64,000 nt of DNA from Candidatus Bathyarchaeia archaeon (GTDB taxonomy: Archaea > Thermoproteota > Bathyarchaeia > Bathyarchaeales > Bathycorpusculaceae). Shown here piece after piece: positions 7,676 through 39,919 of this stretch. Position 1 is the first letter of the stretch, and each line of letters begins with the position of its first letter. The notes under the pieces are model-generated. The model saw only the letters and a list, made by a program, of their open reading frames with translations, made no database searches and was not told the DNA's origin. The DNA lies in assembly GCA_050010755.1 (NCBI GenBank), contig JBEKKK010000001.1:768001-832000 (forward strand), read 5' to 3'. The position numbers were made by a program, and so were the translations under genes.

Positions 7676-8893
7676 TCAGTTTTTCCTTGCCCAGGGGCTT
7701 TTTGAGTATTCGTTCAGAACCGTTTCGTACACGTTTTTGGTTTGTTGAGCTATAGTGTCCCAGTTGTATTTCTCTTGGATTTTTCTTTGCGCATTGGCTC
7801 TCAAGCGGTTTGCTAAGGCCTCGTCCGTGAGCACCCTCGTTATTCCCCAGGAAAGTGAATCGGGGTTGCCGGAGTAAACTTTGATTCCGTCTACTTCGTG
7901 GTTGACTATTTCTGATAGGCCGCCGGCGTCTGAGACTACGACAGGGCTTCCTGCGGCCATGGCTTCGAGGGCTACTATTCCGAAGGGTTCGAAGAGGGAG
8001 GGCACGACTGAGACGTCGGCGCACTTCTGCAGTTTTCGCAGAGTTTCGTTGTCTAGGAAGCCAGTGAACATGACTTTGTGGGCTATTCCCAGCTGTTGAG
8101 CGAGGTTTGAAAGCTGGTCTCTCATGTATCCGTTTCCGACGAACACGAACTTCGCGTCTATTCCTTCCAGCACCTTTGGAATGGCGCTTACGAGCACGTG
8201 GGCTCCCTTTTCATGCACTAGTCTTCCCACGAAGAGCACGATCTTTTCTTGCGGCAAGGCGAACTTGTTTCGAAATTGGCTCAGGTCTTCGTTTTCTTTT
8301 TTCGCGTAGGCTTCGAAGTTGACGCCGTTTGGCACCATGACCAACTTGTCAGGTGGAAGTCCGAAGGCCCATTGTACGTGTGTTATCATGTAGTCGCTGC
8401 AGCATATGACCTTCCAGGCTTCGTAGGTCAGCCACCCCTCAGTTTCATGTATCATCCTCTCATAGTCGGTGTGAATGCCGTTTCTGCGGCCGATTTCTGT
8501 GGAGTGCATCGTGGCAAAGAACGGTTTTCTGAAGACGTGCTTCAATCCTATCCCAGCCGTCGCAACGAGCCAATCGTGAGCGTGGAACACGTCAATGGCT
8601 CCACCGAGGCTGTGGACGAGCGCGGCGGCCTCTTTCTGCATATTTACGTTCATGAGGTAAACCCATGTTGCAAAATCCGGCGCGGGGTTCTTGTACGAGT
8701 CCACGCGGTAGACCTCAACGCCGTCTACGATCTCATGCGGGGGAGCTCCTGGAAAATCGCATGTCACCACGTAGACTTTTACGCCGTGCTTGGCCAAGTT
8801 TCTGGAAAGGTTGTAAATGTGCGGGGATATTCCTCCTATGATTCTCGGCGGGAATTCCCAAGTGAGCATCATGACGCTCAATTCTCCGTTCAT
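7676..8893 (-). CDS. GT4 glycosyltransferase (glycogen-synthase-like), full length, copy 1
   Basis: 'WEFPPRIIGG', 'HAHDW', 'VGRLVHEKG', 'EPFGIVALEAMA'. Confidence 0.92.
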   Translation of the reverse strand: MNGELSVMMLTWEFPPRIIGGISPHIYNLSRNLAKHGVKVYVVTCDFPGAPPHEIVDGVEVYRVDSYKNPAPDFATWVYLMNVNMQKEAAALVHSLGGAIDVFHAHDWLVATAGIGLKHVFRKPFFATMHSTEIGRRNGIHTDYERMIHETEGWLTYEAWKVICCSDYMITHVQWAFGLPPDKLVMVPNGVNFEAYAKKENEDLSQFRNKFALPQEKIVLFVGRLVHEKGAHVLVSAIPKVLEGIDAKFVFVGNGYMRDQLSNLAQQLGIAHKVMFTGFLDNETLRKLQKCADVSVVPSLFEPFGIVALEAMAAGSPVVVSDAGGLSEIVNHEVDGIKVYSGNPDSLSWGITRVLTDEALANRLRANAQRKIQEKYNWDTIAQQTKNVYETVLNEYSKSPWARKN

Positions 8894-9507
8894 GCCGTGG
8901 CCCCCGAGTTTCTGTAGGTCTCCAGTATTTCTTTTATCCAGTTCTCAGATTTGGGCGATATGACTCTGATCTTGCCGGGCGGGGCTTTGTATATCCTGAT
9001 TATCTCTTCTTTCATCCATTCGGACTTGACGACTAGTTTTTCGGCTTCGGTTGTTCCAAGCCATTCGATGCTCTTTATCGACATGTTGAACGGTGAATTG
9101 GCGCCGTGAGAACGGTGTTCCTCCACGCTCTCGACGGAATAAATGAACGGGATGGCAAGTGCCCTTTTCAAAGTGACAGCGGCGGGTATGAAGTGCCAGT
9201 CATGTACGTCGATGAGATCAACTTGTTTGTCCGATGCGTAGTAGATGTTTGCGGCGACTCTTTCGACTTCTTGGTTCAAGGTGAGAACCCATGTTAGGAC
9301 GCCTATGTGAGTGTGAACAGGGTTAGTCACTCTGAAAGTCTTTACGCCCTCAGGCTCCTCATGCTCTCCGGTTAGAAAGTCATGATAGGTGACTACCCAT
9401 GCTTTCTCGTTGTTCTTAACAAGCTCAGTGGCTAATCTTTTCACGTAGTCTGCGAGTTCCCCGACGATTCTGGGCGGGTATTCCCAAGAAAATATCACAA
9501 TGTGCAT
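8890..9507 (-). CDS. GT4 N-terminal-domain-only protein (half GT-B), copy 1
   Basis: 'WEYPPRIVG' and 'DVHDW' present, donor-binding C-domain absent; ATGA overlap with the downstream GT4. Confidence 0.85.
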   Translation of the reverse strand: MHIVIFSWEYPPRIVGELADYVKRLATELVKNNEKAWVVTYHDFLTGEHEEPEGVKTFRVTNPVHTHIGVLTWVLTLNQEVERVAANIYYASDKQVDLIDVHDWHFIPAAVTLKRALAIPFIYSVESVEEHRSHGANSPFNMSIKSIEWLGTTEAEKLVVKSEWMKEEIIRIYKAPPGKIRVISPKSENWIKEILETYRNSGATA

Positions 9508-9517
9508 TGAGGTTTCA

Positions 9518-9769
9518 CTACGTGAAGATTGCGCAGATTTTTATTATCCCGCTCCCTGTTAGGTAGTACTTCTTCTTTCCTTCGTTATCCGTGAAGCTTT
9601 CGGCAAAGCCTTGGCGTTTGTAATCATCAAGAATTCTTTCCAACTCTTGCAGGTCAACCTGCATGACCTGCGACAGTTCTTCGCTTCGTCTGGCCAGCTC
9701 GGGAGATGTTGCACAGAGATTATGTAAAGTTTGCAAAATCTTCTCTGGAAGTGGAAGCGCTTCGCTCAT
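9518..9769 (-). CDS. Small winged-HTH protein, copy 1
   Basis: 83 aa; helix-turn-helix followed by the wing 'GKKKYYLTGSGI'; paralog of 38094-38354. Confidence 0.75.
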   Translation of the reverse strand: MSEALPLPEKILQTLHNLCATSPELARRSEELSQVMQVDLQELERILDDYKRQGFAESFTDNEGKKKYYLTGSGIIKICAIFT

Positions 9770-9841
9770 ACAATCACCTTAATTGTGCCCTGAAGCTATT
9801 GTTGGCGAGTTTTTCTTATAAAGGCATGTGCGCATCCGAAG

Positions 9842-11391
9842 TTAGAAGTATTTGGTGGCGGAGCGCATCTCGGCCGTGAGTTTCGTTGACTCCTTGTCAA
9901 CGTGTTTGATTATTGCTTGTCTGAGAGGTTCGCCCATAAGTTTTGAGAGTCTTTCTTTCTTCAGATTTTGCTCCAATGCTGGGTCATGAAGCGACTTCAG
10001 AGCCCACTGTTCGAAGTCTCCTCGGTTGTTGTGGAATTCCAGGGATTTCATGCTCACGTTGCGAATGGCCTTTGTGAAGCCTTTCAGGCTCCAGGCCGTT
10101 GTTCCTGTGAAGTGCTTTTCTCCTACGCCCGTATAGAATCGGAAGGGTTCGTCCGCGACTACGGCGGCGAGTCTGACTCTGTTTTCGAAGTCCAGTATTG
10201 CTGCTTGCGCGGTTACGAAGGCGTCCATAGGTGTGCTGTAGGGGCTGAAGTACGAGTGGACCTCGCCAGGCGAGCCTCCGGCGGTGAACATGTAATAGAG
10301 GTGGTCGCTTGTCTGGAAATATCGCCACGTTCTCAGGAATTCTTTGTCCTCAGTTTCCCTGACGAAGGGTTCCAACCGTCTCAATGTCGTGTAGAAAGCC
10401 CACTGCAGGGTGTTTCCGAGCCAGCAGCTCGCGTCTCTCTCTCCAGATCCGCCCATGAGACTGTTCCTCCGAGCTCTGGGACGTCGATTTCTCCTGCGGG
10501 GACGTGTTTCTGTGCTGCTTCGGAGGGCGTGGTCATTTGGAGGTTCCACCACTTCAGTATTTCAGGCGGCAAGTGTCTCAGGAAGTCGTGAATGCCGGTT
10601 TCGGGCCAGTGGTGTTCTCCGAAGGTCTCGTAGTCTGGGAAGATGTTGATGCAGTCGCCAGGCGTTGCTGCTAGCCAACTCGCGTATTTGTCCGCGGTCA
10701 ATGGCCACTCGTTCCACCATCTCGCCGAGAACCTGAAGCCTATGTCGTCTGTGAGCTTGTAGTTTCGCAGGAGTATCTTGATTTTTTTCAGGCCTTTGGG
10801 CAGGTAGAGGTGGTTCGGCGATTTTCCATGGAGAATTCTTTCCACGCCTTCGGTGAAGATTCCTTTGTAACCTAGCTTTTCAACTGTTCTCGCGACGGCG
10901 TTGTTGTAGAGCAGCTCCGTGTTCTCGAAGACTGTTGACTTGTAGTCCAGCAGGTCTCTCATAACCTGCTGATGCATCTTCACCTGATCGATGAATTCTT
11001 CTCTCTCGGGGTAGAGGCTTGCCAGGGAGTGATAGTAGGTTTGGCTCAGGAACTCCACTTGGCCAGAATCTGCGAGTTGTTTGAACGTTTCCAGAAGGTC
11101 CTTGTTGAACATTTCGCACTGTTCCAGAAAGACGCCTGAGAGGCTGAACGAGAATTTGGGCTTTTTCTTTTCTCCTTTGTACCTGTCGATGAGTTCGAGC
11201 AGTATGCTGTTCGAGGGAAAGTAGCATTTTCTGCTTGTCCTTTCAAAAACTTCTCTGTTCATCGCGCTGTCAAAGTAGTAGTCGAAGTAGTCTTTTTTGG
11301 CAACGCGTTCGAACATTTTGCTTTCCCAAAAGAAGCTTCGTTTTATTCTGTGTGGTTGATGGACCTCAAAAACAAGAACAACGTCTGTCAA
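9842..11391 (-). pseudogene. GH57 alpha-amylase/amylopullulanase with C-terminal DUF5752-like domain, frameshifted at 10434-10443
   Basis: Two frames (10381..11391 and 9842..10552) together align end to end with the intact paralog 39937..41469. Motifs 'HQP', 'NTEL', 'DYETFGEHHW'. The shift lies in a (GA)5 tract. Confidence 0.88.
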
Positions 11392-11478
11392 ACCTTTGTC
11401 CTCTGTGCCTTTATCGGTTAATCGTTTATTTCTTGTTTGCTGTCAGGGGAGCAGGCGTGGTTAGACAGGGGCGGCTGG

Positions 11479-12258
11479 TCATATTTCGAATTTGTCTATT
11501 ATCTTTCTCTCTCTTTCTCCTGTTATTTCGGCGATGACGTGGATGTACGGTTGAAGTCCCGAGTTTTCGATTCTGGGTTTGAGGAGTTCGTCTATTTGGA
11601 AGACTCCAGCGGAGTTTGACATTGTTATTCTTATCGTTACGGGTTTCGGTTCGCTTTCTTGGATGCTAACCTTTTCGATAGACAATGCGGAGACGGAGTG
11701 AATGTCAACTTTTCCAGCTTGGAACGGTATGCGAGCTCTTCCCTCTTCCATGTCCAAGGCGTCGGCAATGCGCACGATGCCCGCTTCAATTGTTAGGGGT
11801 TTGACTGGGTTCTCGTGTGCGACTATGCAGTGCAACACTTCGGAAAGGATGATGGTGCGTTCCTCCTCAGAGTAGACGGCTTGCAAGTATTTTTCGATGA
11901 GTTGCGAGGCCAGAAGCGCGCTATAATACGCGTGTCCCTCCCTTAGAACTGTCATACCGAGATCGTGGAAGATTGAGCCTAACACGACGACCACTTCGGC
12001 GTCGTCGTTTTTCATGTTGTAGTTTTTGACGATGCTGGGTACGACTTTTTTGTCAATCAGTATTCTGAGGATTTTGAGGGCAACGTTGGAGACGATTTTC
12101 ACGTGGGTGGGCCCGTGATCCGTGTAGCCCATGCGGTCGATGGCCATCACGTTTGCGCATCTCCATAGAGTCTGCAGCTTGGTGTCTTTCTTGACTTCCT
12201 CGATTACATGCTTCAGCTTCTGATTGTCACGAAACGGGATGTTGAAAACGTACGACAT
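11479..12258 (-). CDS. HD-domain metal-dependent phosphohydrolase
   Basis: 'YTDHGPTH', 'FHDLG', 'AH', 'ADALD'. Confidence 0.88.
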   Translation of the reverse strand: MSYVFNIPFRDNQKLKHVIEEVKKDTKLQTLWRCANVMAIDRMGYTDHGPTHVKIVSNVALKILRILIDKKVVPSIVKNYNMKNDDAEVVVVLGSIFHDLGMTVLREGHAYYSALLASQLIEKYLQAVYSEEERTIILSEVLHCIVAHENPVKPLTIEAGIVRIADALDMEEGRARIPFQAGKVDIHSVSALSIEKVSIQESEPKPVTIRITMSNSAGVFQIDELLKPRIENSGLQPYIHVIAEITGERERKIIDKFEI

Positions 12259-12352
12259 TCCATCCGAGCCTATGCTCTTTTCTCATTCATATCCTCATGC
12301 GAGAATTTAAACAATTAGCTTACAGGCGCAGCCTGAGAAGGCGTAACTTTTG

Positions 12353-12787
12353 CTAGGATCGTTTCAGCTTTGGTCGGGTGTAGATTTCGATTACGTAGTT
12401 GTCCGGATCACAGTATGATACGGCGAAGTATCCCTGCTCAAATTCGGGATGCTCTTCGCAGGGAAACAGGGCTTTGAACCCGTTTTCCATCATCATTTTC
12501 TCGACAGCTTCAACGTTTCCCTTTTCTGGCACTAGAATCGCCAGGTGATCAGCTACAACAAACTCTTCTCCCGTGGGGCGGTCGCGTTTGACTCTTGGTT
12601 TTTGCGAGCTGCCAAGCCATACTTGAAAGTTTTGATTGGAGAATCCTGCTCCATCTTCCTCGTCCATTATCATGGAAAATCCTAGCCCTTCTAACAAGGT
12701 CTTGTAAAACTTTTTGGAACGGGTCAAATTGGAAACTTCGATTCCGACATGACCGACTACTGTTTGAGTCTGCTTGTTTGAAGCCAT
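12353..12787 (-). CDS. VOC/glyoxalase family protein
   Basis: 'HVGIEVSNL..SKKFY', 'HLAI', 'DPDNYVIEI'. Confidence 0.85.
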   Translation of the reverse strand: MASNKQTQTVVGHVGIEVSNLTRSKKFYKTLLEGLGFSMIMDEEDGAGFSNQNFQVWLGSSQKPRVKRDRPTGEEFVVADHLAILVPEKGNVEAVEKMMMENGFKALFPCEEHPEFEQGYFAVSYCDPDNYVIEIYTRPKLKRS

Positions 12788-12934
12788 AACCCCACGCTCG
12801 GCATGATTGATGTTATTGCTTACTTAAATCACTTTTACAGATGAGCAAGACCAGTGTCGCGGTCCTCATGGGAACTCGGCCCTTCCGCGAATCTTTTAAT
12901 AAACACGGTTTCTTCATTGGATTGCGTTGGGACC

Positions 12935-13270
12935 ATGGCGTATTTGCGGAAAGACGATGAGACGGTGGAGATAGACCACCCTCTGTGGAAAGTTTGGGCG
13001 GGTACCCAAAACGCGCTTAAGATTCTGCAATGGAGTACTGAACAAGTTGATGAGGCTGCACATCGTGTTAAGGCAAAGACGAAAGCAGGCCCATGGTCGT
13101 GGGGTTCAATACTTTTAATCAACGTAACTCCCGTAAACGAGAGCACGACGAGGGTTTCAGTTGCGGCAGAGACGACGATTACCATGATTACGGCGATAAT
13201 TGATTTTGGCCAAGGAAGAAGACGCATAGGTCAATTCTTCGCGGAACTGGCGAAACAATTAGCCAGCTGA
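12935..13270 (+). CDS. Hypothetical protein
   Basis: Compact alpha/beta ORF from ATG 12935 (MAYLRKDDETVEI...). Confidence 0.6.
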   Translation: MAYLRKDDETVEIDHPLWKVWAGTQNALKILQWSTEQVDEAAHRVKAKTKAGPWSWGSILLINVTPVNESTTRVSVAAETTITMITAIIDFGQGRRRIGQFFAELAKQLAS

Positions 13271-13312
13271 TGATTTATCAAAGCGTGCGCGCTTGGCAGC
13301 TGCGTTATCGGT

Positions 13313-14065
13313 CTAGGAATGCGTTTTCGGGAAGATCTTGATGTCAAACCCTTGAACCGAGTACTCGTAACGTTGATAGCTCTGTGGGTTGTACCGCCAC
13401 CCGGCTTTTTTGACTTCTAAGAATCTTTTTCCGCCTTCCCTCGATAGGTTCACAACAACCTGCGTTATGTGCTCGATTATCGCACAGAACTCTTTGGGGT
13501 GCGCATCTCTGACTATCGTCCAATAGGCTAAGGTCTTGTATGCGTACAGTGCTGGGCAGACGTGCCCAAAGAATCCTTTGACCGCGTCACTTCCCCAAAT
13601 GTGCTGCATCATGGATAAACTGTTGAAAACGAGCCTTGCACTGGGTGTTACGAATTCTCTTTCGATTCTACCGAAGAATTTGTGGAATTGTTCTGGATCT
13701 TTTGAGGTTGGAACTTTTCGCATCCAAGAGGGCGCCGTATCGTAGAAGTCATTGAATATCAATTCGCCCTGACCTGAAGATTCAGAGAAGCAGTCCAGCA
13801 CAAGGAATCTGTCCTCCCAGCCCTGCGGGAAAGTTTTGACGAGAGGAGTCAATTGGAGAATAAGGGCTTGAGGAGGATACATGAAGTCAAGGTATATGAT
13901 TTGGTTCTTGTCCACGACTCCTTGCTTCATAAAAGTGTAGAGGAACTCCCTTGCAAACGTTCCCGATTCTACCTCAAACACCACATTCTCGCCGATGTAG
14001 AGGCCCCCGCCCAAGAGCTTATCTAGAGTTTTGATACCTGTGGAGAACGTGCCAGTGTTGTTCAT
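13313..14065 (-). CDS. KaiC/RecA-superfamily ATPase-like protein with degenerate Walker motifs
   Basis: 'STGIKTLDKLLGGGL' N-terminus; Walker A position reads 'EVESGTFAR'; Walker B-like 'RLVFNSLS'; 'FLEVKKA'. Confidence 0.8.
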   Translation of the reverse strand: MNNTGTFSTGIKTLDKLLGGGLYIGENVVFEVESGTFAREFLYTFMKQGVVDKNQIIYLDFMYPPQALILQLTPLVKTFPQGWEDRFLVLDCFSESSGQGELIFNDFYDTAPSWMRKVPTSKDPEQFHKFFGRIEREFVTPSARLVFNSLSMMQHIWGSDAVKGFFGHVCPALYAYKTLAYWTIVRDAHPKEFCAIIEHITQVVVNLSREGGKRFLEVKKAGWRYNPQSYQRYEYSVQGFDIKIFPKTHS

Positions 14066-14218
14066 TTTTGACAGTCATTCCCAGCCTTTGCTTTGAATAT
14101 CCACTGATAATAATGTTTAGGTATGTTCCACGGTGTTCATGTGTGTACACTATGCACATAACCCTTGTATATTTGAACATTGCTTTGGTGTATCCTACAG
14201 AATGGAGGCATGAAAAGA

Positions 14219-16003
14219 ATGTTGACTTCAGTAGAGCTTTCAGGAAGAGAACTCGGAATGATAAAGCTGATGGCTGACTTCTTCGCTGAAAAACCAGAGC
14301 TAGTAGCAAAAATCGAGAGCTACACAACGGCCCACTATGCACTGATGACGACATACTCGGAGAACTTCGGTGTCCCTGTAGAAGACGCTTGGAAGGTCTT
14401 CGAGGAGGTTGAGAGGAAGATCAACGAGGCAGAATACATACGCGTTGAGGCACCGTATCCATTGAAGAAGTGGTACAGTCTGTCCAAAGAAGAAATAAAC
14501 ATGATGCGCGTCTTGTGCGACTACTTCTCAGCAAACCCTAAGATGAGCCCCGAGAGCGCCTTTGCCGCGACCAGAACAGAATCAATCATAGAGGCCTATA
14601 AATGGTTCTTCGGAACCACAGAGGGCAACGGCGAATATGCTAGAGAGAGCTACCGAAATCTTGTTGAGAAAACGCAAACGGCACTGTCGGTCAAGCTGGA
14701 AACACTGGCCTCGGTTGTAGCAACGCCAAACCCTTACGAAGCCGTCCTCAAGCTCCTGCAAATCGCCGGAGAGAAGTTGAAGCTAGACCCAGGAGTGCAT
14801 GAAGTCCTAAAGCGCCCCATGCGAACCATCATCGTTAATGTTCCAACCACGATGGACGACGGAAGCATAAGAGTCTTCACTGGCTATCGTGTCCAATACA
14901 ACGATGTCTTAGGTCCGACAAAAGGCGGTACAAGATATCACCCTGACCTGACGTTGGACGAGGTCATCGCGCTGGCCGCATGGATGACGCTGAAAACCGC
15001 TCTAACAGGGCTTCCTCTTGGGGGCGGCAAAGGTGGAATACGCTGCAACCCGAAAGAAATGTCCCCCGGGGAACTGGAAAGATTAACCCGAGGCTACACA
15101 CGGGCATTGGCAAGATTCATCGGACCACGCTCAGACGTACCCGCACCAGATGTTTACACAGACTCTCAAACAATGGCATGGATAATGGACGAGTATAGCC
15201 AGATAGTGGGATACAACGCCTTTGGAGTCGTGACGGGAAAGCCAGTTGACGTAGGAGGTTCACTTGGAAGAAACGAGGCAACATCTCGAGGCTTGATGTA
15301 CACCATAATCGAGGCAGCGAAGCACCTAAGCATAGAGCTTCAAGGGGCAACAGTTGCGGTTCAAGGATTCGGGAACGTGGGCTTTCACTCAGCCATGCTG
15401 CTCCATGAACTCGGTTGCAAGATAGTTGCAGTCTCAGACTCCAGAGGTGCGATACTTGATCCTGATGGGCTGAACCCAGCAAAAGTCCTGGAACACAAGA
15501 ACAAAACAGGCTCCGTTACAGGCTACAAGAATTGCAAAGCGCTCTCGAACAAAGAATTGCTAGAGTTGGAATGTGACATCCTCGTCCCATCAGCCATGGA
15601 AAACCAGATAACCACGGCAAACGCAGGCAAAATCAAGGCGAAAATCGTGGCTGAAGGCGCAAACGGACCAACCACGCCAGACGCGGACGAAACACTGTAC
15701 AGAAACGGAGTGTTCGTTATCCCTGATGTTTTGGCCAACTCGGGCGGCGTAATAGTCAGCTACTTTGAACAAGTGCAGAACCAAATGAACTACTATTGGA
15801 CCGAGGAGGAAGTGCGGAGCAAACTGAAGAGCGCGATAGTCAATGCATTCAAAGATGTTTTCGCAGTGTCCGAACAGTACAAGGTGAACATGCGAATAGC
15901 AGCCTACATGAACGCTGTAAAGAGACTTGCCGATGCAATGTCATTCCGCAACAGGAAAACCTTCGTTCCAGTCGCCGAGATAAATAACGTCACAGTCAAA
16001 TGA
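14219..16003 (+). CDS. gdhA: Glu/Leu/Phe/Val (glutamate) dehydrogenase with a ~170-aa N-terminal extension
   Basis: 'GPTKGG', 'GGGKGG', 'DVPAPD', 'QGFGNVG', 'EGANGP'. Core starts near 14729 (NPYE). GGAGG at 14204-14208 favours ATG 14219. Confidence 0.9.
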   Translation: MLTSVELSGRELGMIKLMADFFAEKPELVAKIESYTTAHYALMTTYSENFGVPVEDAWKVFEEVERKINEAEYIRVEAPYPLKKWYSLSKEEINMMRVLCDYFSANPKMSPESAFAATRTESIIEAYKWFFGTTEGNGEYARESYRNLVEKTQTALSVKLETLASVVATPNPYEAVLKLLQIAGEKLKLDPGVHEVLKRPMRTIIVNVPTTMDDGSIRVFTGYRVQYNDVLGPTKGGTRYHPDLTLDEVIALAAWMTLKTALTGLPLGGGKGGIRCNPKEMSPGELERLTRGYTRALARFIGPRSDVPAPDVYTDSQTMAWIMDEYSQIVGYNAFGVVTGKPVDVGGSLGRNEATSRGLMYTIIEAAKHLSIELQGATVAVQGFGNVGFHSAMLLHELGCKIVAVSDSRGAILDPDGLNPAKVLEHKNKTGSVTGYKNCKALSNKELLELECDILVPSAMENQITTANAGKIKAKIVAEGANGPTTPDADETLYRNGVFVIPDVLANSGGVIVSYFEQVQNQMNYYWTEEEVRSKLKSAIVNAFKDVFAVSEQYKVNMRIAAYMNAVKRLADAMSFRNRKTFVPVAEINNVTVK

Positions 16004-16099
16004 CCTCATTCCCCTATTTTTTACTTCCTATGTACATATCCTGCTTTTCGCTGAACATGACTTAAAAGAGACAAGCGGAGAGCATAGAGCTGTGAGAGA

Positions 16100-29911: not shown

Positions 29912-29922
29912 TTGTTCTTCCT

Positions 29923-31236: not shown

Positions 31237-31293
31237 CCTCGTAGCGTACGCGAAGCTATTATACTTCGGATTCCCAACTAGGCTGATTTAGTT

Positions 31294-32514: not shown

Positions 32515-32525
32515 CCCTTGCACAT

Positions 32526-33731
32526 TCAACCCGATGCCTTCCACGCGCCATTATTGTACTCGTTCCGAACAGCATCGTAAACGCCACTTGTCCACTCTGC
32601 AATCTTGTCCCAGTTGTAGTTCCACAGGCACTTTCGATACGCGTTCTCAACCACGTAGTTCTTGAACCCAACATCTCTCAACATCCTGAGAATTGCCCCC
32701 GCCAACGCTGGAGGATCACCTGTTGGAACCCTCAGGCCAGTGCCGCCGTCGTCCACGATTTCATTCAGTCCACCGGTAGAAGTCGTCACCAAGGGGCAGT
32801 GAGCGGCCATGGCTTCAAGTGCCACTATCCCGAAGGGCTCGAATTTCGATGGGACAACGGTCACGTCTGCCACACGATACAGAGCTCTTAGAACCCAATC
32901 GTCAATGTATCCTGCAAACATCACTTTTTCGGCCAGACCGCGTTCGCTGACGATCCCTTGATACACTTCTTTTTGAGGTCCCTCTCCAACCACGACTAGT
33001 TTGACGTTCACGCCTCCATCGAGAATCATGGGTAACGCGTTGATGAGAGTGTCTAAGCCCTTTTCAGTAACTAGCCTCCCGACGAACAGTAAGATTCTTT
33101 CGGAGGCGTGTGCAAATCGATTCCTGACATCCCAATAGTTGAAGCCGAAGCTGAATTTTGAAACGTCGACGCCGTTGGGTATAACGCACACTTTGTTTTC
33201 GGGCAGATGGAAACACCAGGCGACGTGGCTGCGCATATAATAAGAACAGGTGATAACCCGCCAAGATTCAAAGGTAATCCAGCCCTCAATCTGATGAATC
33301 GACGCCTGAAAATCATTGTGGATCCCCGTTCTTCTGCCATATTCCGTGCTGTGCATCGTCGTAATCAAGGGTTTCCTGTACAGATGCTTCAGTCCGACGC
33401 CCGCGACGCCGGAAAGCCAATCGTGCGCGTGGATAATGTCGAACCCTCCTGTTCCGCTGATTAAGTCGCTGCCAGCGATCTCCATGTTCTTCTGCATTCG
33501 AAGGGCCCAACCCAGAAACGAGTCTCCAGTGGCATACGCTTCAAACCTGTCGACGTTGACGCCGTCGATGCTCTCGAACTTCTTAGCACCGGGAAAGTTG
33601 CATGTCATAACATTAACTTCTAAGCCCCTGCGAACGAGGGCCCTGGAGAGATCAAAAACGTGTGAAGCTATGCCCCCTATTATTCGGGGAGGAAATTCCC
33701 ATGATAGATGAAGAATCCGCATTCGCATCAC
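32526..33731 (-). CDS. GT4 glycosyltransferase, full length, copy 2
   Basis: 'WEFPPRIIGG', 'HAHDW', 'GRLVTEKG', 'EPFGIVALEAMA'. Confidence 0.92.
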   Translation of the reverse strand: MMRMRILHLSWEFPPRIIGGIASHVFDLSRALVRRGLEVNVMTCNFPGAKKFESIDGVNVDRFEAYATGDSFLGWALRMQKNMEIAGSDLISGTGGFDIIHAHDWLSGVAGVGLKHLYRKPLITTMHSTEYGRRTGIHNDFQASIHQIEGWITFESWRVITCSYYMRSHVAWCFHLPENKVCVIPNGVDVSKFSFGFNYWDVRNRFAHASERILLFVGRLVTEKGLDTLINALPMILDGGVNVKLVVVGEGPQKEVYQGIVSERGLAEKVMFAGYIDDWVLRALYRVADVTVVPSKFEPFGIVALEAMAAHCPLVTTSTGGLNEIVDDGGTGLRVPTGDPPALAGAILRMLRDVGFKNYVVENAYRKCLWNYNWDKIAEWTSGVYDAVRNEYNNGAWKASG

Positions 33732-34358
33732 TCACGTTATGGCCCGGTTGTACACTGAAATGACTTCATCAACCCAGTTCGGGCCGACAGGCCAGATTAC
33801 CCTCATTTTCCCATTGTGACCCTCACCGTAGTATCTCAATATCTCCCTTTTCAACGACTCAGTGTTCGTGATCACCGTTTTAGATTCCCACATTCCCATG
33901 TCCTCAATTTCCTTGATTGCCAAGCTGGTAGCGTTGAAATTGTCGTGGCACCGATGCCCTTCGATTGAATGAAAGGTCATGACGAAGGGAATGTGAAAGG
34001 CGTGTTTGAGAACGATAGCCGGATATGTCGTAAGCCACTCGTGAGCATGAACAATATCGATTCTTTTCCCTAGCTGTTTATAGAAATGAATGATGTTTGA
34101 GGATTCAGTTTCCATCTGCAGCGAAGCTGTAACGTCATAACTGAGTATGCTAGCCATCGGATGAGTCTTGACAGGATTGGCAACTCTGTGGACGTGAACG
34201 CCGGAAACATCTTCAAACCCTGGCTTCAAATCGTCCAGAGCTACCAGTTCAACCTCGTTTCCTCGTCTGAGAAGCTCATGGGCCAGCGTGCTCACGTGGT
34301 CAGCGACATTTCCAAGGCGTTTGGGCGGATATTCCCAGCTAAGCAACAGAATGCGCAT
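33732..34358 (-). CDS. GT4 N-terminal-domain-only protein, copy 2
   Basis: 'WEYPPKRLGNV', 'HAHEW'; no C-domain; abuts the full GT4. Confidence 0.85.
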   Translation of the reverse strand: MRILLLSWEYPPKRLGNVADHVSTLAHELLRRGNEVELVALDDLKPGFEDVSGVHVHRVANPVKTHPMASILSYDVTASLQMETESSNIIHFYKQLGKRIDIVHAHEWLTTYPAIVLKHAFHIPFVMTFHSIEGHRCHDNFNATSLAIKEIEDMGMWESKTVITNTESLKREILRYYGEGHNGKMRVIWPVGPNWVDEVISVYNRAIT

Positions 34359-34391
34359 CGGCGAGCCACTGGTAGGGATAGAGTTGCGAGG

Positions 34392-34964
34392 TCACGAGCG
34401 TGTTTTGCCCAATCTCAATCGTTCTATGCGAGCGTCTGTCAACCCTGTAATGCGGGTTCTGAGCTCTTCACCGTAGAGGTTTGAGGTTCTTAATCGCTCA
34501 AAATCTTTGGCCAGCTCTGCATCACCAAGAACATCCTTGCACCATTTTGCAAAGTCGCCTCTCTTAACGTGAAACTCCAACGATTTGGGATCAACCTTCT
34601 TTGCTTTTTCCTTAAAATCTGAGAGGCTGCAAGCGGACATTTTCGCGGACTTGTCCTGTCCGAATCCAGTGTAAAAGTGGAAGCATTTTTCCTGAGGCAG
34701 TGCCGAGTAAACTTCCTTTGCACTTTCCGGCAGCACTCCTATCGCAATTAGTCCGAGAGGAGTCAATTTGTAGGCAGAGGGATCTTCTTGCGTCTTGTTC
34801 AGAAACATTTTTTGTTCCAACGATTTCAGATAGACGGATAGATCCTGAGTGGTGTAGGGTTCTCCCAGACCCACCGCAAGGCTGTCGGGCGTTGCTTTTC
34901 CCAGCGAGTTAATCTTTTTTAGCACAACGATCTCGTCTTTCGAGGATACAGACACGGAAAGCAC
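34392..34964 (-). CDS. wHTH + DUF5752-like domain protein
   Basis: N-terminal wHTH ending 'YKLTPLGLIA'; C-terminal 'FHFYTG...SLSDF...SLEFH..RGDF.KW...LGD.ELA' matches the GH57 C-terminal domains in this window. Confidence 0.75.
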   Translation of the reverse strand: MLSVSVSSKDEIVVLKKINSLGKATPDSLAVGLGEPYTTQDLSVYLKSLEQKMFLNKTQEDPSAYKLTPLGLIAIGVLPESAKEVYSALPQEKCFHFYTGFGQDKSAKMSACSLSDFKEKAKKVDPKSLEFHVKRGDFAKWCKDVLGDAELAKDFERLRTSNLYGEELRTRITGLTDARIERLRLGKTRS

Positions 34965-35041
34965 CTGAGTCTCAGATAGTGGGCATCCACCATAATAACT
35001 TTATCTTCCAACCCCCAATCTGTCTTAAGGGTGGCAGCAGA

Positions 35042-36259
35042 ATGGACAAGCAACCTTTGCATTTTGCCTTGGTATTGCACATGCATCAGCCAAGGTACAA
35101 CCTGTACGGCCCCACCTACGAGTCTGAGATGGCCCGCGACGTTTTCAACCAGACACTTCATCCCTACACGTACCCTTCAGAAGCGCTGAGAAAAGAAGAG
35201 AATGCGAGGATCACTCTAAACTTCACGGGCAGCTTGATTGAACAAATTAACGAGCTCGCAACCGTCGGGTTCGATCCAAGACTGAACGGACTATGGGACA
35301 GATACCAAGAGACACGCACCCTCGGCAGAGCAGAGTTCACAGGCTGCGGCTATTTTCACCCAATATTCCCGCTCATCCCAGAGGCAGACCGACTGAAACA
35401 AATTGAAAAACATCTGAACCTCTACGAGCGAACCTTCGGAACGAGACCAGAGGGATTATGGCTTCCAGAACTCGCCTTCAGCCCCAAGATAATCCCCGTG
35501 CTGGCAAAGAGTGGCGTAAAATGGACGATAGTTGACGGCCCTCACATCGTCAACGCCAACAAAGACAAGAACATGTATCAACTGTTGTACAGACCCCACT
35601 TTGCGGAGTACGATGGACACCGCATAATTGTCATCCCCCGCGACAGGATGATCAGCATCGCTCAACAAAGTGGCTACAACCCCGTATGGCTCAAACACGA
35701 GGTTGAAAGAGAAATCGAACCAAACAACGATGGAGAGTTCCTATTGACCGTGGCCACAGACGGAGAAAACGGATGGTTCCGCCACTCCGGAGAGAACGCC
35801 GGATTCTGGGGATGGTTCTTCGAACCCCTCCTCTATCTCCTGAAGAAAGATCCCGACTTCCAATTCATAAAATTGACAACTATAACCGAATACCTCGCTG
35901 AACATCCGCCGAAAGACATCGTGAGTGTTGAGGATGGAAGCTGGAATGTTCCAGACACGTTTGACGATGGCAGGTTCCTGAAGTGGACTGGGAGTGAAGA
36001 GAAGCAAAAAACCTGGAGCCGCGTTCTCGAGGCCAGCGCAATTCTGCGTGAAACGGAAGAAAAGATAGAAACCGGGAGGGTGAACTGTCCGCCAGCGGCG
36101 ATCGACGCGTTAGATCAGGCTTGCCGCTGGCTGCTGATGGCCGAGGCGAGCGACGATTTCTGGTGGGGAAGCAAAGACTGGCTAGATCGATCCGTCGTCT
36201 GCTCCCTCAAAGCCAGGGAAAAAATCAATGAAGCATCAAGTCTCTGTAGAATCACGTAG
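35042..36259 (+). CDS. Glycoside hydrolase family 57 protein
   Basis: 'HMHQP', 'WLPEL', 'TDGEN', 'GSW', 'AEASD'. Confidence 0.87.
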   Translation: MDKQPLHFALVLHMHQPRYNLYGPTYESEMARDVFNQTLHPYTYPSEALRKEENARITLNFTGSLIEQINELATVGFDPRLNGLWDRYQETRTLGRAEFTGCGYFHPIFPLIPEADRLKQIEKHLNLYERTFGTRPEGLWLPELAFSPKIIPVLAKSGVKWTIVDGPHIVNANKDKNMYQLLYRPHFAEYDGHRIIVIPRDRMISIAQQSGYNPVWLKHEVEREIEPNNDGEFLLTVATDGENGWFRHSGENAGFWGWFFEPLLYLLKKDPDFQFIKLTTITEYLAEHPPKDIVSVEDGSWNVPDTFDDGRFLKWTGSEEKQKTWSRVLEASAILRETEEKIETGRVNCPPAAIDALDQACRWLLMAEASDDFWWGSKDWLDRSVVCSLKAREKINEASSLCRIT

Positions 36260-37460
36260 GCTTCCAAGAACCCGCATTATACACTTCGAGTACCTGTTCA
36301 TAAAACTCCTTTGTCTGCCTCGCAATCTTTGCCCAATCGTAAACATGCACCGCCTTCTGGTACGCGTTGTCCTTAATCCAGTTGGCGTATCCGGGATCCA
36401 AAAGCACTCTCGTCACGCCCCACGCGACTGAGTCTGCGTTCCCGGGGAAAACCTTGGTTCCAGTTCTATCGTGTTCAACGATTTCTGAGAGACCGCCCGA
36501 GTTTGATGCTACCAGCGCCGTCTTCGCTGCCATCGCTTCTAGCGCCGTGATGCCAAACGGTTCGTAAAGAGAAGGCACGACGCAGACATCGGCGATTTGA
36601 TACAGCTTTCTGAGACGGTCGTCGTCCAGAAAGCCTGTGAAAATAACCTTGTGTGAAAGGTGCATGTTGGCCACTTGCCGCGTGAGAGAATCCCTCATGC
36701 CGCCGTCACCGACAACCACGAATTTCGCGTTCGCTCTGGAAAGGATTTTCGGGATAGCGTTGATTAAGGTCTGCACGCCCTTTTCATAGACCAAGCGGCC
36801 GACGAAGAGCACAATCTTCTCTTCAGGCGACGCGAACCTCTTCCTGAACTCAGCCTTGTCGAACTCCTTCTGATACACACTCACGTCAACGCCGTTAGGA
36901 ATAATCGTCACCCTATCCTCGGAAAGACCGAAGGCCCACCTCACCTGCCAAGACATGTACCAGCTGCAGCAGACAACTCGCCAAGACTCGTGAGCGAGCC
37001 AGTTTTCGGTTTGATGAATCATCCTTTCATAATCCGTGTGAAGTCCGTTCCTCCTGCCGATTTCGGTCGAGTGTATGGTGGCAACAAGTGGGATTCTGAA
37101 GACGTGTTTGAGGCCGACAGCGGCGTTTGCCACGAGCCAATCATGGGCGTGTATTATGTCAACTCGGCCGTCGAGACTGCTGATGAGAGCAGCCGTTTCT
37201 TTTTGCATGTTCACGTTCATCAAGGAGTCCCAAGTCGCAAAGTCCGGGGAAGGAGTTTTATATGAATCTACTCTCAGCACGTGTGCACCGTTCACCGTCT
37301 CGCTTTCCGGGGCCCCGGGAAAGTCGCATGTCACGATGTAAGTATCTACACCGAGTTTTACGAGTTCTCGCGACAGATTGAAAAGATGAGCCGAGAGTCC
37401 GCCCACCGTTCTCGGCGGAAACTCCCACGATAGCATCACGACTCGAAGATGCTTGTTCAG
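36252..37460 (-). CDS. GT4 glycosyltransferase, full length, copy 3 (start CTG 37460 or GTG 37439)
   Basis: 'WEFPPRTVGG', 'HAHDW', 'GRLVYEKG', 'EPFGITALEAMA'. Confidence 0.9.
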   Translation of the reverse strand: MNKHLRVVMLSWEFPPRTVGGLSAHLFNLSRELVKLGVDTYIVTCDFPGAPESETVNGAHVLRVDSYKTPSPDFATWDSLMNVNMQKETAALISSLDGRVDIIHAHDWLVANAAVGLKHVFRIPLVATIHSTEIGRRNGLHTDYERMIHQTENWLAHESWRVVCCSWYMSWQVRWAFGLSEDRVTIIPNGVDVSVYQKEFDKAEFRKRFASPEEKIVLFVGRLVYEKGVQTLINAIPKILSRANAKFVVVGDGGMRDSLTRQVANMHLSHKVIFTGFLDDDRLRKLYQIADVCVVPSLYEPFGITALEAMAAKTALVASNSGGLSEIVEHDRTGTKVFPGNADSVAWGVTRVLLDPGYANWIKDNAYQKAVHVYDWAKIARQTKEFYEQVLEVYNAGSWKPT

Positions 37461-38089
37461 TTTGCAGGTACCCCCAGCTTCTGATAAACCGCTAAAATGC
37501 TATTTATCCAAGATTCGGCATCAGGCGAAACCACCTCTATCCTGTTGTCTAAGATGTTGTAGTGACGCTTCAATTCTTGCTTCATCCATTCCGATTTGAC
37601 CAGGACGCTCGCGGCTTCAGACAATCCTAGAGACTCCATGCTTCTTATGGACGAGCTCAGAGGGGCACCGCTGTTTCGAGATCGGTGAGGTTCGAGACTG
37701 TCTACCGAAAAAACAAATGGAATCTTTAACGCCTTTTTCAACGTGACGGCGGCTGGTACGAAGTGCCAATCGTGCACGTCGATGAGATCCACCTCGTGCT
37801 TCATCGAATAATAGATGTCTGCGGCGACACGTTCGGCTTCTTGATTCAGGCTCAACATCCACGTTAGAACGTTTATTTGAGGTTGAACCTTGTCCGAGAT
37901 TCTGTATGCCTTAATGCCGTCTGCGCCCTGATGAAAACCGGTCCAAGAATTGTTATACGTGACAACGTACACGTCGACGCTTTTCTTCACCAATTCCGCC
38001 GCAAGCCTGTTCACGTAATGCGCGAGTTGGCCGATGATTCTCGGAGGAAATTCCCACGTGAAAATTATCACGCGCACGAGAGAGCGCAC
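37457..38089 (-). CDS. GT4 N-terminal-domain-only protein, copy 3
   Basis: 'WEFPPRIIGQL', 'DVHDW'; close paralog of 8890..9507. Confidence 0.85.
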   Translation of the reverse strand: MRSLVRVIIFTWEFPPRIIGQLAHYVNRLAAELVKKSVDVYVVTYNNSWTGFHQGADGIKAYRISDKVQPQINVLTWMLSLNQEAERVAADIYYSMKHEVDLIDVHDWHFVPAAVTLKKALKIPFVFSVDSLEPHRSRNSGAPLSSSIRSMESLGLSEAASVLVKSEWMKQELKRHYNILDNRIEVVSPDAESWINSILAVYQKLGVPAN

Positions 38090-38093
38090 TTCC

Positions 38094-38354
38094 TCAGCTG
38101 AAAAACGAGGAGACTCTTATTATCCCCTTGCCCGTGAGGTAGAATCTTCTGTTTCCCTCGTGATCGCGGTAGTCTGCGACGTATCCGTCGGAAACATGCT
38201 TGTCCAAGTTCTGGTTGACCGTATTAACGTCTGTTTGAAGAATCTGAGCCAAATCCTCGCTTTTCCTAGCCATTTCGCCGCTAGTGGCAGATAGATTATG
38301 CATGGTAATCAGAAGACGCTCTGACAGAGAAGCCTCATACTCGCTCAACTTCAT
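38094..38354 (-). CDS. Small winged-HTH protein, copy 2
   Basis: 'MHNLSATS.E.AR.SE.L...GNRRFYLTGKGII'; paralog of 9518..9769. Confidence 0.75.
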   Translation of the reverse strand: MKLSEYEASLSERLLITMHNLSATSGEMARKSEDLAQILQTDVNTVNQNLDKHVSDGYVADYRDHEGNRRFYLTGKGIIRVSSFFS

Positions 38355-38443
38355 CAGTCTCTTCCTTCAAGAAGATGACCGACCAAATAACTTTTGTGCA
38401 AGAGACCTTTAATACATGTCAACACACGTCAATGTGATTATTA

Positions 38444-39919
38444 ATGACCCCTCGCCGTCTGACCGTTCTGATGCTTAGCTGGGAATTTCCGCCCAGAATT
38501 ATTGGGGGAATCTCCTCACACGTGAATGATCTCTCGATGGCTCTGACCAGTAGGAATGTTATGGTTCATGTAGTCACGTGCGACTTTCCAGGAGCCCCAG
38601 AGTACGAGCGAGTAGGCGGGGTCGAGGTGCACCGCTTCAACTCGAAGATACCATCTACGACCTTCCTAGGATGGGTTTTCTCAATGAACCAGGCCATGGC
38701 CGAAAAAGCCATCGACGTCATCAACGATAGCAACGAAGAGATAGACATTATCCACGCTCATGACTGGCTCGTCGCCGAAGCGGCCGTGAAAGTCAGCCAG
38801 GCATTCACGAAACCATTGGTCTCAACGATACACGCAACTGAAATGGGAAGAAGGAGCGGAATACACAACGATTACCAGAGGACCATAAACGAAGTGGAAT
38901 GGCACCTCGTCAACCAGAGCTCAGAGGTAATATGTTGCAGCAATTACATGGCTCATCAGGTTTCCTCCGCCTTCAACGTACAAGGTTCCAAACTTCATGT
39001 GATTCCAAACGGCGTGAACGCCGCCAAGTTCAGCGGCAGCATCGGCACAATGCCCGTCAAACAGCAGTACGCAATGAACGGTGAGAAAATAGTGTCCTTC
39101 GTCGGAAGGCTCGTTCACGAGAAGGGAGTGCACGTCCTCATCGGCGCAGTGCCCAAAGTGTTGACGGAGGTGCCTAAGGTCAACTTCGTAATCGTCGGGG
39201 AAGGAGGGATGAAGGATTATTTGGCGAAGGAGGCGTATGACTTCGGCGTCGCCGATCATGTCTTTTTTGCAGGTTTTGTTGATGAAAAAACGTTGATTTC
39301 GATTTACAGGGCGAGTGACGCTGCCGTTTTCCCCTCTCTTTACGAGCCGTTCGGCATCACTGCTCTAGAAGCGATGGCAGCGAAGACGCCGGTCATAGTG
39401 ACGGACACTGGAGGACTGGCCGAGATAGTGGAACATGAAAAGACAGGCATCAAGGTTTTCGTGGACAACTCGGATTCGTTGGCCTGGGGAATCCTGAGAG
39501 TGCTTAAAAACCCTGGGGTCGCAAAAAAGTTTCGTGAGAATGGCTACCAAGAAGTTCTCAGAGAGTATGATTGGAGCGCCATCGCCGAAAGAACCCTGGA
39601 AGTCTATAATAGCGCACTCGTGTCGACTTCCAGACCTGAACCAATTCGCATGAAATTTCCTTCATTCACGTTCGAAGAGCATCCTCCAGAAATGAGAATC
39701 CTTCTTTTGATGCACATTCTCGGAGCCCTCGACGACGAAAACGCCAAGCGACCCGCAGAGCTGGTGGAAATACTGGGAATGGACGCCAAGACGCTGCGTG
39801 TTCTGCTGCAGAAACTCGTGGACTCCGGTTACATAATCTCTTTCAGAGACAATCTCCGGCGGGTCCGGTATTACCTCACCAAACTCGGCATAGTCAAAGT
39901 GCTGTCAGCTTTTTCCTAA
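38444..39919 (+). CDS. GT4 glycosyltransferase fused to a C-terminal wHTH domain
   Basis: Complete GT4 motifs plus a ~80-aa tail 'MHILGALDDENAKRPAEL...RYYLTKLGIVKVLSAFS' homologous to the small wHTH proteins. Confidence 0.88.
   Translation: MTPRRLTVLMLSWEFPPRIIGGISSHVNDLSMALTSRNVMVHVVTCDFPGAPEYERVGGVEVHRFNSKIPSTTFLGWVFSMNQAMAEKAIDVINDSNEEIDIIHAHDWLVAEAAVKVSQAFTKPLVSTIHATEMGRRSGIHNDYQRTINEVEWHLVNQSSEVICCSNYMAHQVSSAFNVQGSKLHVIPNGVNAAKFSGSIGTMPVKQQYAMNGEKIVSFVGRLVHEKGVHVLIGAVPKVLTEVPKVNFVIVGEGGMKDYLAKEAYDFGVADHVFFAGFVDEKTLISIYRASDAAVFPSLYEPFGITALEAMAAKTPVIVTDTGGLAEIVEHEKTGIKVFVDNSDSLAWGILRVLKNPGVAKKFRENGYQEVLREYDWSAIAERTLEVYNSALVSTSRPEPIRMKFPSFTFEEHPPEMRILLLMHILGALDDENAKRPAELVEILGMDAKTLRVLLQKLVDSGYIISFRDNLRRVRYYLTKLGIVKVLSAFS

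Follow-up and report, generated by a model that had tools for sequence, protein, structure and literature searches.

We analysed a 64,000-nucleotide stretch of the genome of a Candidatus Bathyarchaeia archaeon (contig JBEKKK010000001.1, positions 768,001 to 832,000 of the forward strand; in the following, the window), which encodes three copies of a module in which a complete glycosyltransferase of family 4 (GT4) is preceded by a protein corresponding to only the N-terminal half of such an enzyme (half-GT4). We hold with moderate confidence that the half-GT4 is the non-catalytic protomer of a heterodimeric GT4 alpha-glucosyltransferase within an alpha-glucan cluster, the heterodimer itself being a prediction. 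The halves are conserved and under selection, have the fold of a GT4 N-domain and lack the donor motifs, and they have kept their gene order and been duplicated together with the adjacent GT4. The substrate and the product, as well as the roles of a winged helix and of a DUF5752 domain that accompany the enzymes, we infer.

The genes of all three modules are present as open reading frames (ORFs) whose translations match the sequences quoted in an earlier, sequence-only reading of this DNA, and they agree with the three co-directional sets of a winged-helix gene, a half-GT4 gene and a full GT4 gene that it had described at 9769-7676, 34964-32526 and 38354-36252 (Table 1). Half and full GT4 genes had been said to overlap or abut, which is correct for module 1 (overlap of 4 nucleotides) and module 2 (directly abutting), but in module 3 the two are separated by a gap of 17 nucleotides. 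Likewise, the first gene encodes a small winged-helix protein in modules 1 and 3, whereas in module 2 it encodes a 190-residue fusion of a winged helix with a DUF5752 domain. The stretch from 7676 to 39919 does not form one contiguous system: about 22 kb separate module 1 from the other two modules, and the genes in this interval, GDH, PGK and GAPDH among them, are unrelated. The organism's own genome contains exactly three half-GT4 genes, all of which lie inside the window.

In the three halves, Pfam detects N-domain families only (PF13439 and PF13579; PF13439 with 52.6-67.1 bits against a cut-off of 28.5), and no match to PF00534 or PF13692, which represent the donor domain with its E-x7-E motif, was found; the proteins stop after the N-domain and one helix. 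A model of the half of module 1 (P0002), built from an alignment of 35 sequences, reached a predicted local distance difference test score (pLDDT) of 95.1 and a predicted template modelling score (pTM) of 0.91, with a confident helix at residues 190-201. When the model was compared with solved structures, using VIA-align 2 on the top 1000 PDB chains from Foldseek, it superposed on MshA (3c4q_B; Z 25.2, root mean square deviation (rmsd) 2.6, 200 residues aligned, model 1-205 onto 1-409) and GlgM (6tvp_A; Z 25.0, rmsd 1.9, 185 aligned, model 1-203 onto 1-387) as well as on sucrose-phosphate synthase (SPS; 6kih_A, Z 22.9) and the Pyrococcus abyssi glycogen synthase (3fro_A, Z 20.8). Since the alignments run up to the C-terminal end of the full-length chains, the terminal helix of the half occupies the place of the cross-over helix of GT-B enzymes, which bears out the earlier suggestion that it resembles the last helix of full enzymes. 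In sequence, the register differs, the distance from W to Y being 8 residues in the halves as against 11 in full enzymes. The strings quoted for the W-x3-I-x3-Y motif at the end of all three halves are indeed present; however, module 2 has V in place of I, and the Y is, by eye, not the last residue but is followed by 7, 5 and 8 further residues. Among the 54 archaeal half genes that we collected (see below), the relaxed form W-x3-[IVLM]-x3-Y occurs in 45 and the strict form with I in 30.

The phosphate-binding Gly-Gly loop, which follows WE(F/Y)PP, is present as GEL, GNV and GQL in the three halves, just as previously quoted. None of the 54 halves has its second glycine, which all 54 adjacent full GT4s possess; the halves instead have Q at this position in 19 cases, E in 10, K in 9, N in 7, D in 3, R in 2, and P, H and L in 1 each, with 1 unread. 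Other N-domain residues are common to halves and full enzymes, namely W8, E9, P11, P12, G16, W104, E129, R132 and E148. Judged by their sequences, the halves fit the GT4 N-domain and fail as functional GT4 enzymes in the donor domain and the GG loop, and the claim that they are catalytically dead is supported by the missing donor domain and by the loss of the second loop glycine in all 54. Apart from these proteins, one full-length bacterial GT4 with a high score against the half profile (P0160, 512 amino acids (aa), Clostridium bornimense / uncultured Clostridium) carries G-E in its loop and donor-domain motifs that, judged by eye, are altered (GNLNYDKG, YKPFGKE...D, ADTEK), and may be an independent full-length pseudo-GT4.

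A search restricted to relatives of 112-359 aa (E <= 1e-3) returned 3314 half-GT4 relatives, the best 120 of which were all 205-211 aa long, some of them named Bathyarchaeia. Without restriction of length, a HMMER search with a profile of the three halves against 1.84 billion representatives gave 2610 matches at E <= 1e-3, of which 42 reached E <= 1e-30. Among the clusters at 50% identity, the top ~37 were nearly all about 200-222 aa long and covered the profile from position 1 to about 201, including the terminal helix, and full-length GT4s ranked only below them. Of 121 sampled genomes of the class, 20 matched the half at E <= 1e-40, 19 of these with half-sized open frames; in the family to which the organism belongs, matches were obtained in 8 of 9 other genomes.

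We further collected 79 loci and scanned their ORFs with hidden Markov models made from the window proteins, which yielded 49 archaeal loci with a half and the 54 half genes mentioned above. A full GT4 is located directly downstream of the half in 51 cases; two of the others leave the contig and one (L014) is fused. Directly upstream, a small winged-helix gene is found in 46 of the 54 cases, the winged helix-DUF5752 type in 4 and neither was detected in the remaining 4, and a gene for a GH57 enzyme with DUF5752 lies further upstream in 26. The complete supercluster of modules 3 and 2, including a GT4-winged-helix fusion and the GH57 gene between the modules, recurs in six loci (L029, L033, L034, L036, L048 and L049). 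From this we conclude that the order of the module genes is kept far beyond chance among these 49 related loci, so that the synteny that the sequence-only reading had proposed to look for does exist. The point of truncation is constant as well, the halves measuring 198-218 aa across the 54 genes. In L014 (5974-7863), half and full GT4 form one 629-aa frame; we rejected it as a natural half-GT4 fusion, because the sequence diverges within the terminal helix, which probably reflects a frameshift in that assembly.

Ratios of nonsynonymous to synonymous substitution (dN/dS, Nei-Gojobori method) were obtained from the 16 of 1431 pairs that were usable (dS 0.05-1.5), with all three module types represented. 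The median was 0.088 for the half, 0.058 for the N-domain and 0.062 for the C-domain of the GT4, and 0.028 for the winged-helix gene. The half genes are accordingly not neutral but show a ratio in the purifying range, and together with the constant length and the confident fold this agrees with the claim that they are selected and self-contained rather than decayed. A maximum-likelihood tree of N-domains (26 halves and 27 full enzymes, a subset of the 54 pairs, with 5 clostridial rows as outgroup) places the halves in one clade (Shimodaira-Hasegawa-like approximate likelihood ratio test (SH-aLRT) 100, stem 1.07) and the full enzymes in another (98, stem 0.41). Both clades show the same branching order, with the module 2 group first, followed by the module 3 and module 1 groups; the root is insecure, because the outgroup is not monophyletic. 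The simplest reading of this history would be a single ancient truncation and a burst of change, after which half and GT4 were duplicated as a pair.

We propose that the half is a selected, non-catalytic paralogue of the GT4 encoded directly downstream. It retains the N-terminal Rossmann domain, the acceptor side of a GT-B enzyme, stabilized by the cross-over helix kept at its C-terminus, and has lost the entire nucleotide-sugar domain together with the second glycine of the GG loop. Being encoded by a gene that overlaps, abuts or lies 17 nucleotides from that of its cognate GT4, it would be co-produced with it and bind N-domain to N-domain over a pseudo-twofold interface, in the position that a second protomer has in a GT4 dimer. 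Activity would then reside in a heterodimer with a single catalytic site, whose catalytic subunit is stabilized or tuned by the half; the half may also provide another face for acceptor binding or a surface for docking. The full GT4s would be retaining alpha-glucosyltransferases from the neighbourhood of GlgM, sucrose-phosphate synthase and archaeal glycogen synthases, and the pathway would build and remodel an alpha-glucan resembling glycogen. Two further parts are constant, the small winged-helix protein and the OrfY-like DUF5752 domain, which may tie the enzymes together or regulate them.

The predicted complex of the half and the GT4 of module 1 is in line with this proposal. Three runs gave an interaction prediction score from aligned errors (ipSAE) of 0.92, and the highest value among 3 controls was 0.01; the mark applied to this score is reached by 58 of 80 solved complexes and by 2 of 110 mismatched pairs, counts that are approximate here, as custom alignments were used. 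At least 99% of the contacts were common to the three runs, and the pLDDT of the partner was at least 91. The predicted interface is nearly symmetric and runs from N-domain to N-domain, with residues 67-94, 112-122 and 143-157 of the GT4 facing residues 63-90, 108-118 and 138-150 of the half. Interface residues of module 2 differ from those of modules 1 and 3 in both partners, a difference which is compatible with, but no proof of, module-specific pairing of half and GT4. The sequence-only reading had taken the halves to be self-contained, catalytically dead proteins that may serve as glucan sensors or as regulatory subunits; their selected, self-contained and non-catalytic nature stands, and the check by complex prediction, which was passed, favours the role of a subunit of the adjacent GT4.

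The full-length partners have the make-up of active enzymes. Pfam finds the N-domain and Glycos_transf_1 in all three, and the motifs GG, GRLVxEKG, EPFGIxxLEAMA and GGLxEIV do not vary among 34 sequences, which comprise the GT4s of the three modules and orthologues of these. The nearest PDB sequences are SPS (6kih, E = 7.7e-30), GlgM (6tvp, E = 1.1e-24), MshA and the P. abyssi GlgA. The window encodes a fourth GT4, which has no half and carries a winged-helix domain at its C-terminus (Table 1); its catalytic motifs were seen by eye, outside the alignment of 34 sequences, and the same fusion is found in the six loci with the complete supercluster. Fusions with a GH57 branching enzyme occur among relatives of the GT4 N-domain (P0170, P0171 and P0264, all GH57+BE_C+GT4, 936-1147 aa); P0210 (1003 aa) is a GH57+GT4 fusion for which no BE_C match was listed, and other closely scoring relatives include one DUF4912-GT4 and one NUDIX-GT4 fusion. 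Clostridial GT4 relatives adjoin a GH57 protein of ~530 aa in 13 of 28 loci. In the organism's own genome, which is 93.5% complete, no GlgA exceeded the cut-off (the best match was the GT4 of module 1, with 101 bits against 328), and searches revealed neither a GT35 phosphorylase nor a GH13 enzyme. All matches to PF03065 (GH57) are inside the window, and four NTP-transferase genes are located outside it. Beyond the full GT4s, four GH57 proteins and one GH15 protein, no alpha-glucan enzyme was detected in this genome, so that the pathway is most likely that of a glycogen-like alpha-glucan, and the cluster is probably the only glycogen-type machinery of the organism. A glycogen synthase activity of the full GT4s is suggested by the GH57 and GH15 neighbours and by the fusions of GH57 branching enzymes with GT4 in relatives. 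A second, more distant type of GT4 (415-440 aa) often lies just upstream of GH57-DUF5752 (L008-L011, L015, L028 and L038; about 1900-3900, minus strand) and occurs four times elsewhere in the own genome (C1:935200, C1:1100738, C1:864489 and C4:10020).

The small winged-helix proteins are highly conserved, with the motif LHNLCAT and the C-terminal motif YYLTGxGIIKVCxLFT. Their family is acidic (median net charge -3, range -5 to +1 in 46 sequences); against PDB chains its profile matches MarR (E = 2.3e-5) and TubR (E = 5.5e-5), and no Pfam family exceeded the cut-off for P0001 or P0007. Because of the acidic character of the family and the fusion of the domain to a GT4, a role in protein-protein contacts would fit at least as well as that of a transcription factor. 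In the larger protein of module 2 (P0004; model pLDDT 90.7), residues 3-78 match MarR-like winged helices (Z 10-12) and residues 83-182 match OrfY of Thermoproteus tenax (4cso_A; Z 12.7, rmsd 2.4, 98 aligned), a protein labelled as a transcription factor by its depositors. Since the DUF5752 profile matches both repeats of 4cso (E = 3.3e-8), the domain found here corresponds to one OrfY repeat. PF19027 matches the window proteins with 27.7-29.9 bits (cut-off 23), only the first half of the Pfam model being covered; the ESM Atlas returned DUF5752 clusters only for this part (scores up to 0.81), and a literature search found no paper on DUF5752, nor on OrfY in combination with tenax. Winged helix and DUF5752 occur in four domain combinations, namely GT4-winged helix, winged helix-DUF5752, GH57-DUF5752 and DUF5752 alone upstream of a winged-helix gene (L039 and L041), which argues for a joint action with the enzymes; that they are found fused to one another as well as to GT4 and GH57 suggests a tethering or regulating role. 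A search with P0001 for longer relatives gave no fused form at E <= 1e-3 among 116 candidates, which is a weak negative, as the GT4 fusion of the window is itself too divergent to be found in this way. Two more small DUF5752 matches are located in the own genome outside the window (C3:148634-148906 and C1:416685-417020).

In the divergent intergenic region upstream of module 3, the most conserved stretch is an A/T-rich block (Table 1), which by position and composition is likely the archaeal promoter of module 3 (B recognition element (BRE) and TATA box). It occurs once in the window, where 0.73 matches are expected by chance, and, because it is not repeated, we found no shared operator. A scan of four upstream regions for inverted repeats gave only one pair with 71% complementarity and one short palindrome, none of them convincing. 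The same intergenic region contains a direct repeat, TTGACGTG followed two bases further by TTGACATG (window 38415-38432, minus strand), which is common to L049 and not conserved in L033, L034 and L029; if it serves as an operator, it would do so in close relatives alone.

Several points weigh against the proposed heterodimer and its assignment to glycogen synthesis. The heterodimer is a predicted one, and close cousins of a true partner pass as well; moreover, the prediction gives no preference of the heterodimer over half-half or full-full dimers. Since GT4 enzymes are known as dimers (Saci_1249, for example, is reported as a homodimer in PMC7688234), the positive prediction may stem from a resemblance to homodimers of known structure. 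Conservation is not higher at the interface than in the other columns, with a mean entropy of 1.95 against 2.00 elsewhere in the half and of 1.29 against 1.09 elsewhere in the GT4 N-domain. The pairs available for dN/dS are few (16) and mutually dependent. As for the enzymes, the best NCBIfam model for the full GT4s, the GlgM-type TIGR02149, gives 161-177 bits against a cut-off of 302.4, and TIGR02095 (GlgA, GT5) gives 100-117 bits against 328.45, in the C-domain only. Since the nearest solved relatives (SPS, GlgM and MshA) use small phosphorylated acceptors, the product could be a sugar phosphate and not a polymer. It is gene context, together with fusions, that suggests the tie of the winged helix and DUF5752 to the half or the GT4.

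That the halves are mere gene fragments, either decaying duplicates or N-terminal pieces of a split GT-B enzyme of the Alg14/Alg13 kind, would explain why the truncation lies at a domain boundary with a paralogue adjoining, and L014 reads through into the GT4. We nevertheless consider this highly improbable: the length is fixed and the terminal helix kept, dN/dS is about 0.09, and the halves form one ancient clade with a long stem that is kept across many Bathyarchaeia lineages (19 of the 121 class genomes carry a half). Furthermore, no ORF with only a C-domain was found beside any of the 54 halves, the downstream gene being a complete GT4 in 51, and the L014 read-through looks like a frameshift. 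A different explanation, which takes up the sensor idea of the sequence-only reading, sees in the module a split sugar-sensing regulator, in which the winged helix binds DNA and the half is a detachable domain that senses maltooligosaccharide or sugar phosphate and thereby controls the GT4 and GH57 genes. TrmB-type regulators join a winged helix with a sugar-binding domain, and the winged-helix gene immediately precedes the half in 46 of 54 cases; the family profile resembles the DNA binders MarR and TubR, the winged helix of P0004 superposes on MarR regulators and some P0004 relatives are named HxlR or MarR regulators by JGI. The depositors' name for OrfY points in the same direction, and E9, W104, E129, R132 and E148 of the N-domain of the full enzyme are kept in the half. 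Yet the winged-helix family is acidic, the helix at the recognition position is, by eye, rich in D and E, and a fusion to the C-terminus of a complete GT4 would be unusual in a repressor. The window contains no second copy of the conserved intergenic block, the four upstream regions show no convincing palindrome, and the complex prediction joins the half with the GT4. We regard a regulator of this kind as unlikely.

A further alternative concerns the product and is compatible with the heterodimer: the GT4s might produce a small glycoside that is phosphorylated or serves as a compatible solute, for example maltose-1-phosphate (the product of GlgM) or trehalose-6-phosphate (the product of the GT4-type trehalose-6-phosphate synthase, TPS, of Sulfolobus), with the half as an activating partner comparable to the glycosyltransferase that activates TPSP in T. 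tenax. The nearest solved sequences (SPS, GlgM and MshA) and the best NCBIfam model are in its favour, GT4 enzymes with TPS activity are described from TACK archaea (PMC7688234), and TPSP is reported to be activated via a complex with a GT (PMC3634074). DUF5752 matches OrfY, which is from T. tenax as well, and genes for inositol-1-phosphate synthase and for a GH38 protein resembling mannosylglycerate hydrolase are located nearby. On the other hand, every family cut-off was missed, the four GH57 and one GH15 proteins of the cluster and the fusions of GH57 branching enzymes with GT4 in relatives point to a polymer, and no GH13 was found in the genome and hence no GlgE-type enzyme that would use maltose-1-phosphate. 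We regard such a product as possible, although a glycogen-like polymer made by the GT4 heterodimer is the reading that we prefer.

The genes around the modules are listed in Table 1. The GH57-DUF5752 gene of module 1 is split into two frames by two extra bases in a (GA)n run (10425-10440, minus strand) relative to L001 and L002, which may reflect an error of the assembly, a genuine slip that inactivates the gene, or switching that is prone to slippage. For GH57-DUF5752, no PDB sequence matched at E <= 1e-3 and no NCBIfam family was found. The position of the GH57 gene divergent from module 2 is kept in the six loci with the supercluster, and its product matches branching-enzyme models of NCBIfam below threshold only (28 bits); the divergent GH57-like protein convergent with module 2 has orthologues in L036 and L049. 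One Glu is invariant in all four GH57 proteins and D-x-E is present by eye, which we take to be the catalytic residues of GH57 (Glu of region 3, Asp of region 4). Elsewhere, a GH57 protein with two tandem C-terminal DUF5752 repeats, like the two-repeat OrfY, is encoded at L044:7881-9803. The window also contains genes for a myo-inositol-1-phosphate synthase and a GH38 protein (45615-46694 and 52069-54666), the latter resembling mannosylglycerate hydrolase with 197 bits, below the cut-off; the two genes give a hint of compatible-solute metabolism in the neighbourhood.

Table 1 Features of the three half-GT4 modules and of their surroundings in the window.
Feature	Position	Strand	Basis
Module 1, small winged-helix protein P0001, 83 aa	9518..9769	-	ORF, translation; net charge -3
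Module 1, half-GT4 P0002, 205 aa	8890..9507	-	N-domain and cross-over helix, no donor domain
Module 1, full GT4 P0003, 405 aa	7676..8893	-	Pfam N-domain and Glycos_transf_1; catalytic motifs intact
Module 2, winged helix-DUF5752 fusion P0004, 190 aa	34392..34964	-	PF19027 27.7 bits; model
Module 2, half-GT4 P0005, 208 aa	33732..34358	-	Pfam N-domain
Module 2, full GT4 P0006, 401 aa	32526..33731	-	Pfam; motif alignment
Module 3, small winged-helix protein P0007, 86 aa	38094..38354	-	Translation, charge
Module 3, half-GT4 P0008, 210 aa	37457..38089	-	Pfam N-domain
Module 3, full GT4 P0009, 395 aa	36252..37439	-	Pfam; motif alignment
Fourth GT4, 491 aa, winged-helix domain fused at C-terminus, no half	38444..39919	+	Pfam; tail aligns with P0001 and P0007
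Conserved A/T-rich block, divergent intergenic region	38383..38398	-	Most conserved stretch in alignment of 6 orthologous intergenic regions
Module 1 GH57 catalytic part, 336-aa ORF, 5' piece of frameshifted GH57-DUF5752 gene	10381..11391	-	PF03065 286 bits
3' piece of the same gene, 236-aa ORF, DUF5752	9842..10552	-	PF19027 29.9 bits; aligns with tail of 510-aa paralogue
Intact GH57-DUF5752 fusion, 510 aa	39937..41469	-	PF03065 285 bits, PF19027 27.8 bits
GH57 divergent from module 2, 426 aa	34979..36259	+	PF03065 116 bits
Divergent GH57-like protein convergent with module 2, 406 aa	31294..32514	+	PF03065 49.7 bits
GH15-like protein (glucoamylase or oligosaccharide-amylase type), 357 aa	41566..42639	-	PF00723; TIGR01577 150 bits, below cut-off

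Taken further, the parts could form a so far unrecognised archaeal glycogen machine, in which obligate heterodimers of GT4 and pseudo-protomer are combined with acidic winged helices and DUF5752 domains that act as docking modules, not as DNA binders, and tether the synthase to GH57 proteins; the latter would supply the branching activity that has so far been missing in TACK archaea, and the three sets would be specialised versions. We consider this combination as a whole doubtful.

With the solved GT4 structures (MshA 3c4q, GlgM 6tvp, SPS 6kih and 2r60, P. abyssi glycogen synthase 3fro), the half shares the fold of the N-domain and the position of the terminal helix (Z 20.8-25.2), but it is without their donor-binding domain and GG loop, and the full enzymes of the window share sequence with them yet miss the curated cut-offs. 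The same design of N-domain and cross-over helix is present in an engineered SPS construct from Thermosynechococcus (6ldq, tll1590 residues 27-220 joined to 406-426; 6ldq_B, Z 20.5, 177 aligned), the existence of which indicates that such a unit can be stable alone. That construct is man-made, whereas the design of the half-GT4 is natural, conserved and under selection. In Alg13/Alg14, two halves rebuild one enzyme. Like these and the bacterial split GT-B enzymes, the half-GT4 is a GT-B N-domain on a separate polypeptide, but no gene for a C-domain alone accompanies it, and its neighbour is a complete GT4. STARCH SYNTHASE 5 of Arabidopsis is reportedly without the C-terminal GT1 subdomain. The protein is called a non-catalytic starch synthase in PMC11772324 and is reported in PMC10801857 to bind MRC, so that, as described there, it resembles the half, as we interpret it, in being a non-catalytic paralogue of an alpha-glucan synthase that works via protein contacts, in this case in granule initiation. 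It differs in that it is a GT5 protein of the plant plastid with an independent origin and a coiled-coil partner, and has no operon, winged helix or OrfY-like domain.

OrfY (4cso) is a stand-alone tandem of two repeats, whereas the DUF5752 domains here consist of one repeat; the orfY gene presumably lies near the trehalose operon of T. tenax. In this archaeon, a protein of a GT family is reported to activate the trehalose synthase TPSP by complex formation (PMC3634074), which makes TPSP-GT an archaeal case of a GT-family activator of a sugar-phosphate synthase, but its GT is full length and its partner is of the GT20 type. The same source describes Tsl1 and Tps3 of yeast as catalytically inactive paralogues that serve as structural or regulatory subunits of the trehalose synthase complex (PMC3634074). 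As we propose for the half, they are inactive paralogue subunits of a sugar synthase, but they are full length, of the GT20 family and eukaryotic.

Pseudoenzyme partners of glycosyltransferases are thus already known; in the literature searched, we found no natural GT-B protein consisting of an N-domain and a cross-over helix that is co-duplicated with its catalytic partner. Both members of the half/GT4 pair are small, soluble and readily expressed, which puts the hypothesis within reach of a direct test. According to a 2024 review, the role of GT4 in archaeal glycogen clusters needs clarifying, TACK archaea contain glycogen but no GH13 or GH57 branching enzyme is known from them, and an amylase-like GH57 might be the missing branching enzyme (PMC11046441). 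For Bathyarchaeia, an abundant uncultured lineage of sediments and soils, the window gives conserved candidates for both the synthase and the branching activity, and the candidate synthase is accompanied by a dedicated, selected, half-sized pseudo-subunit.

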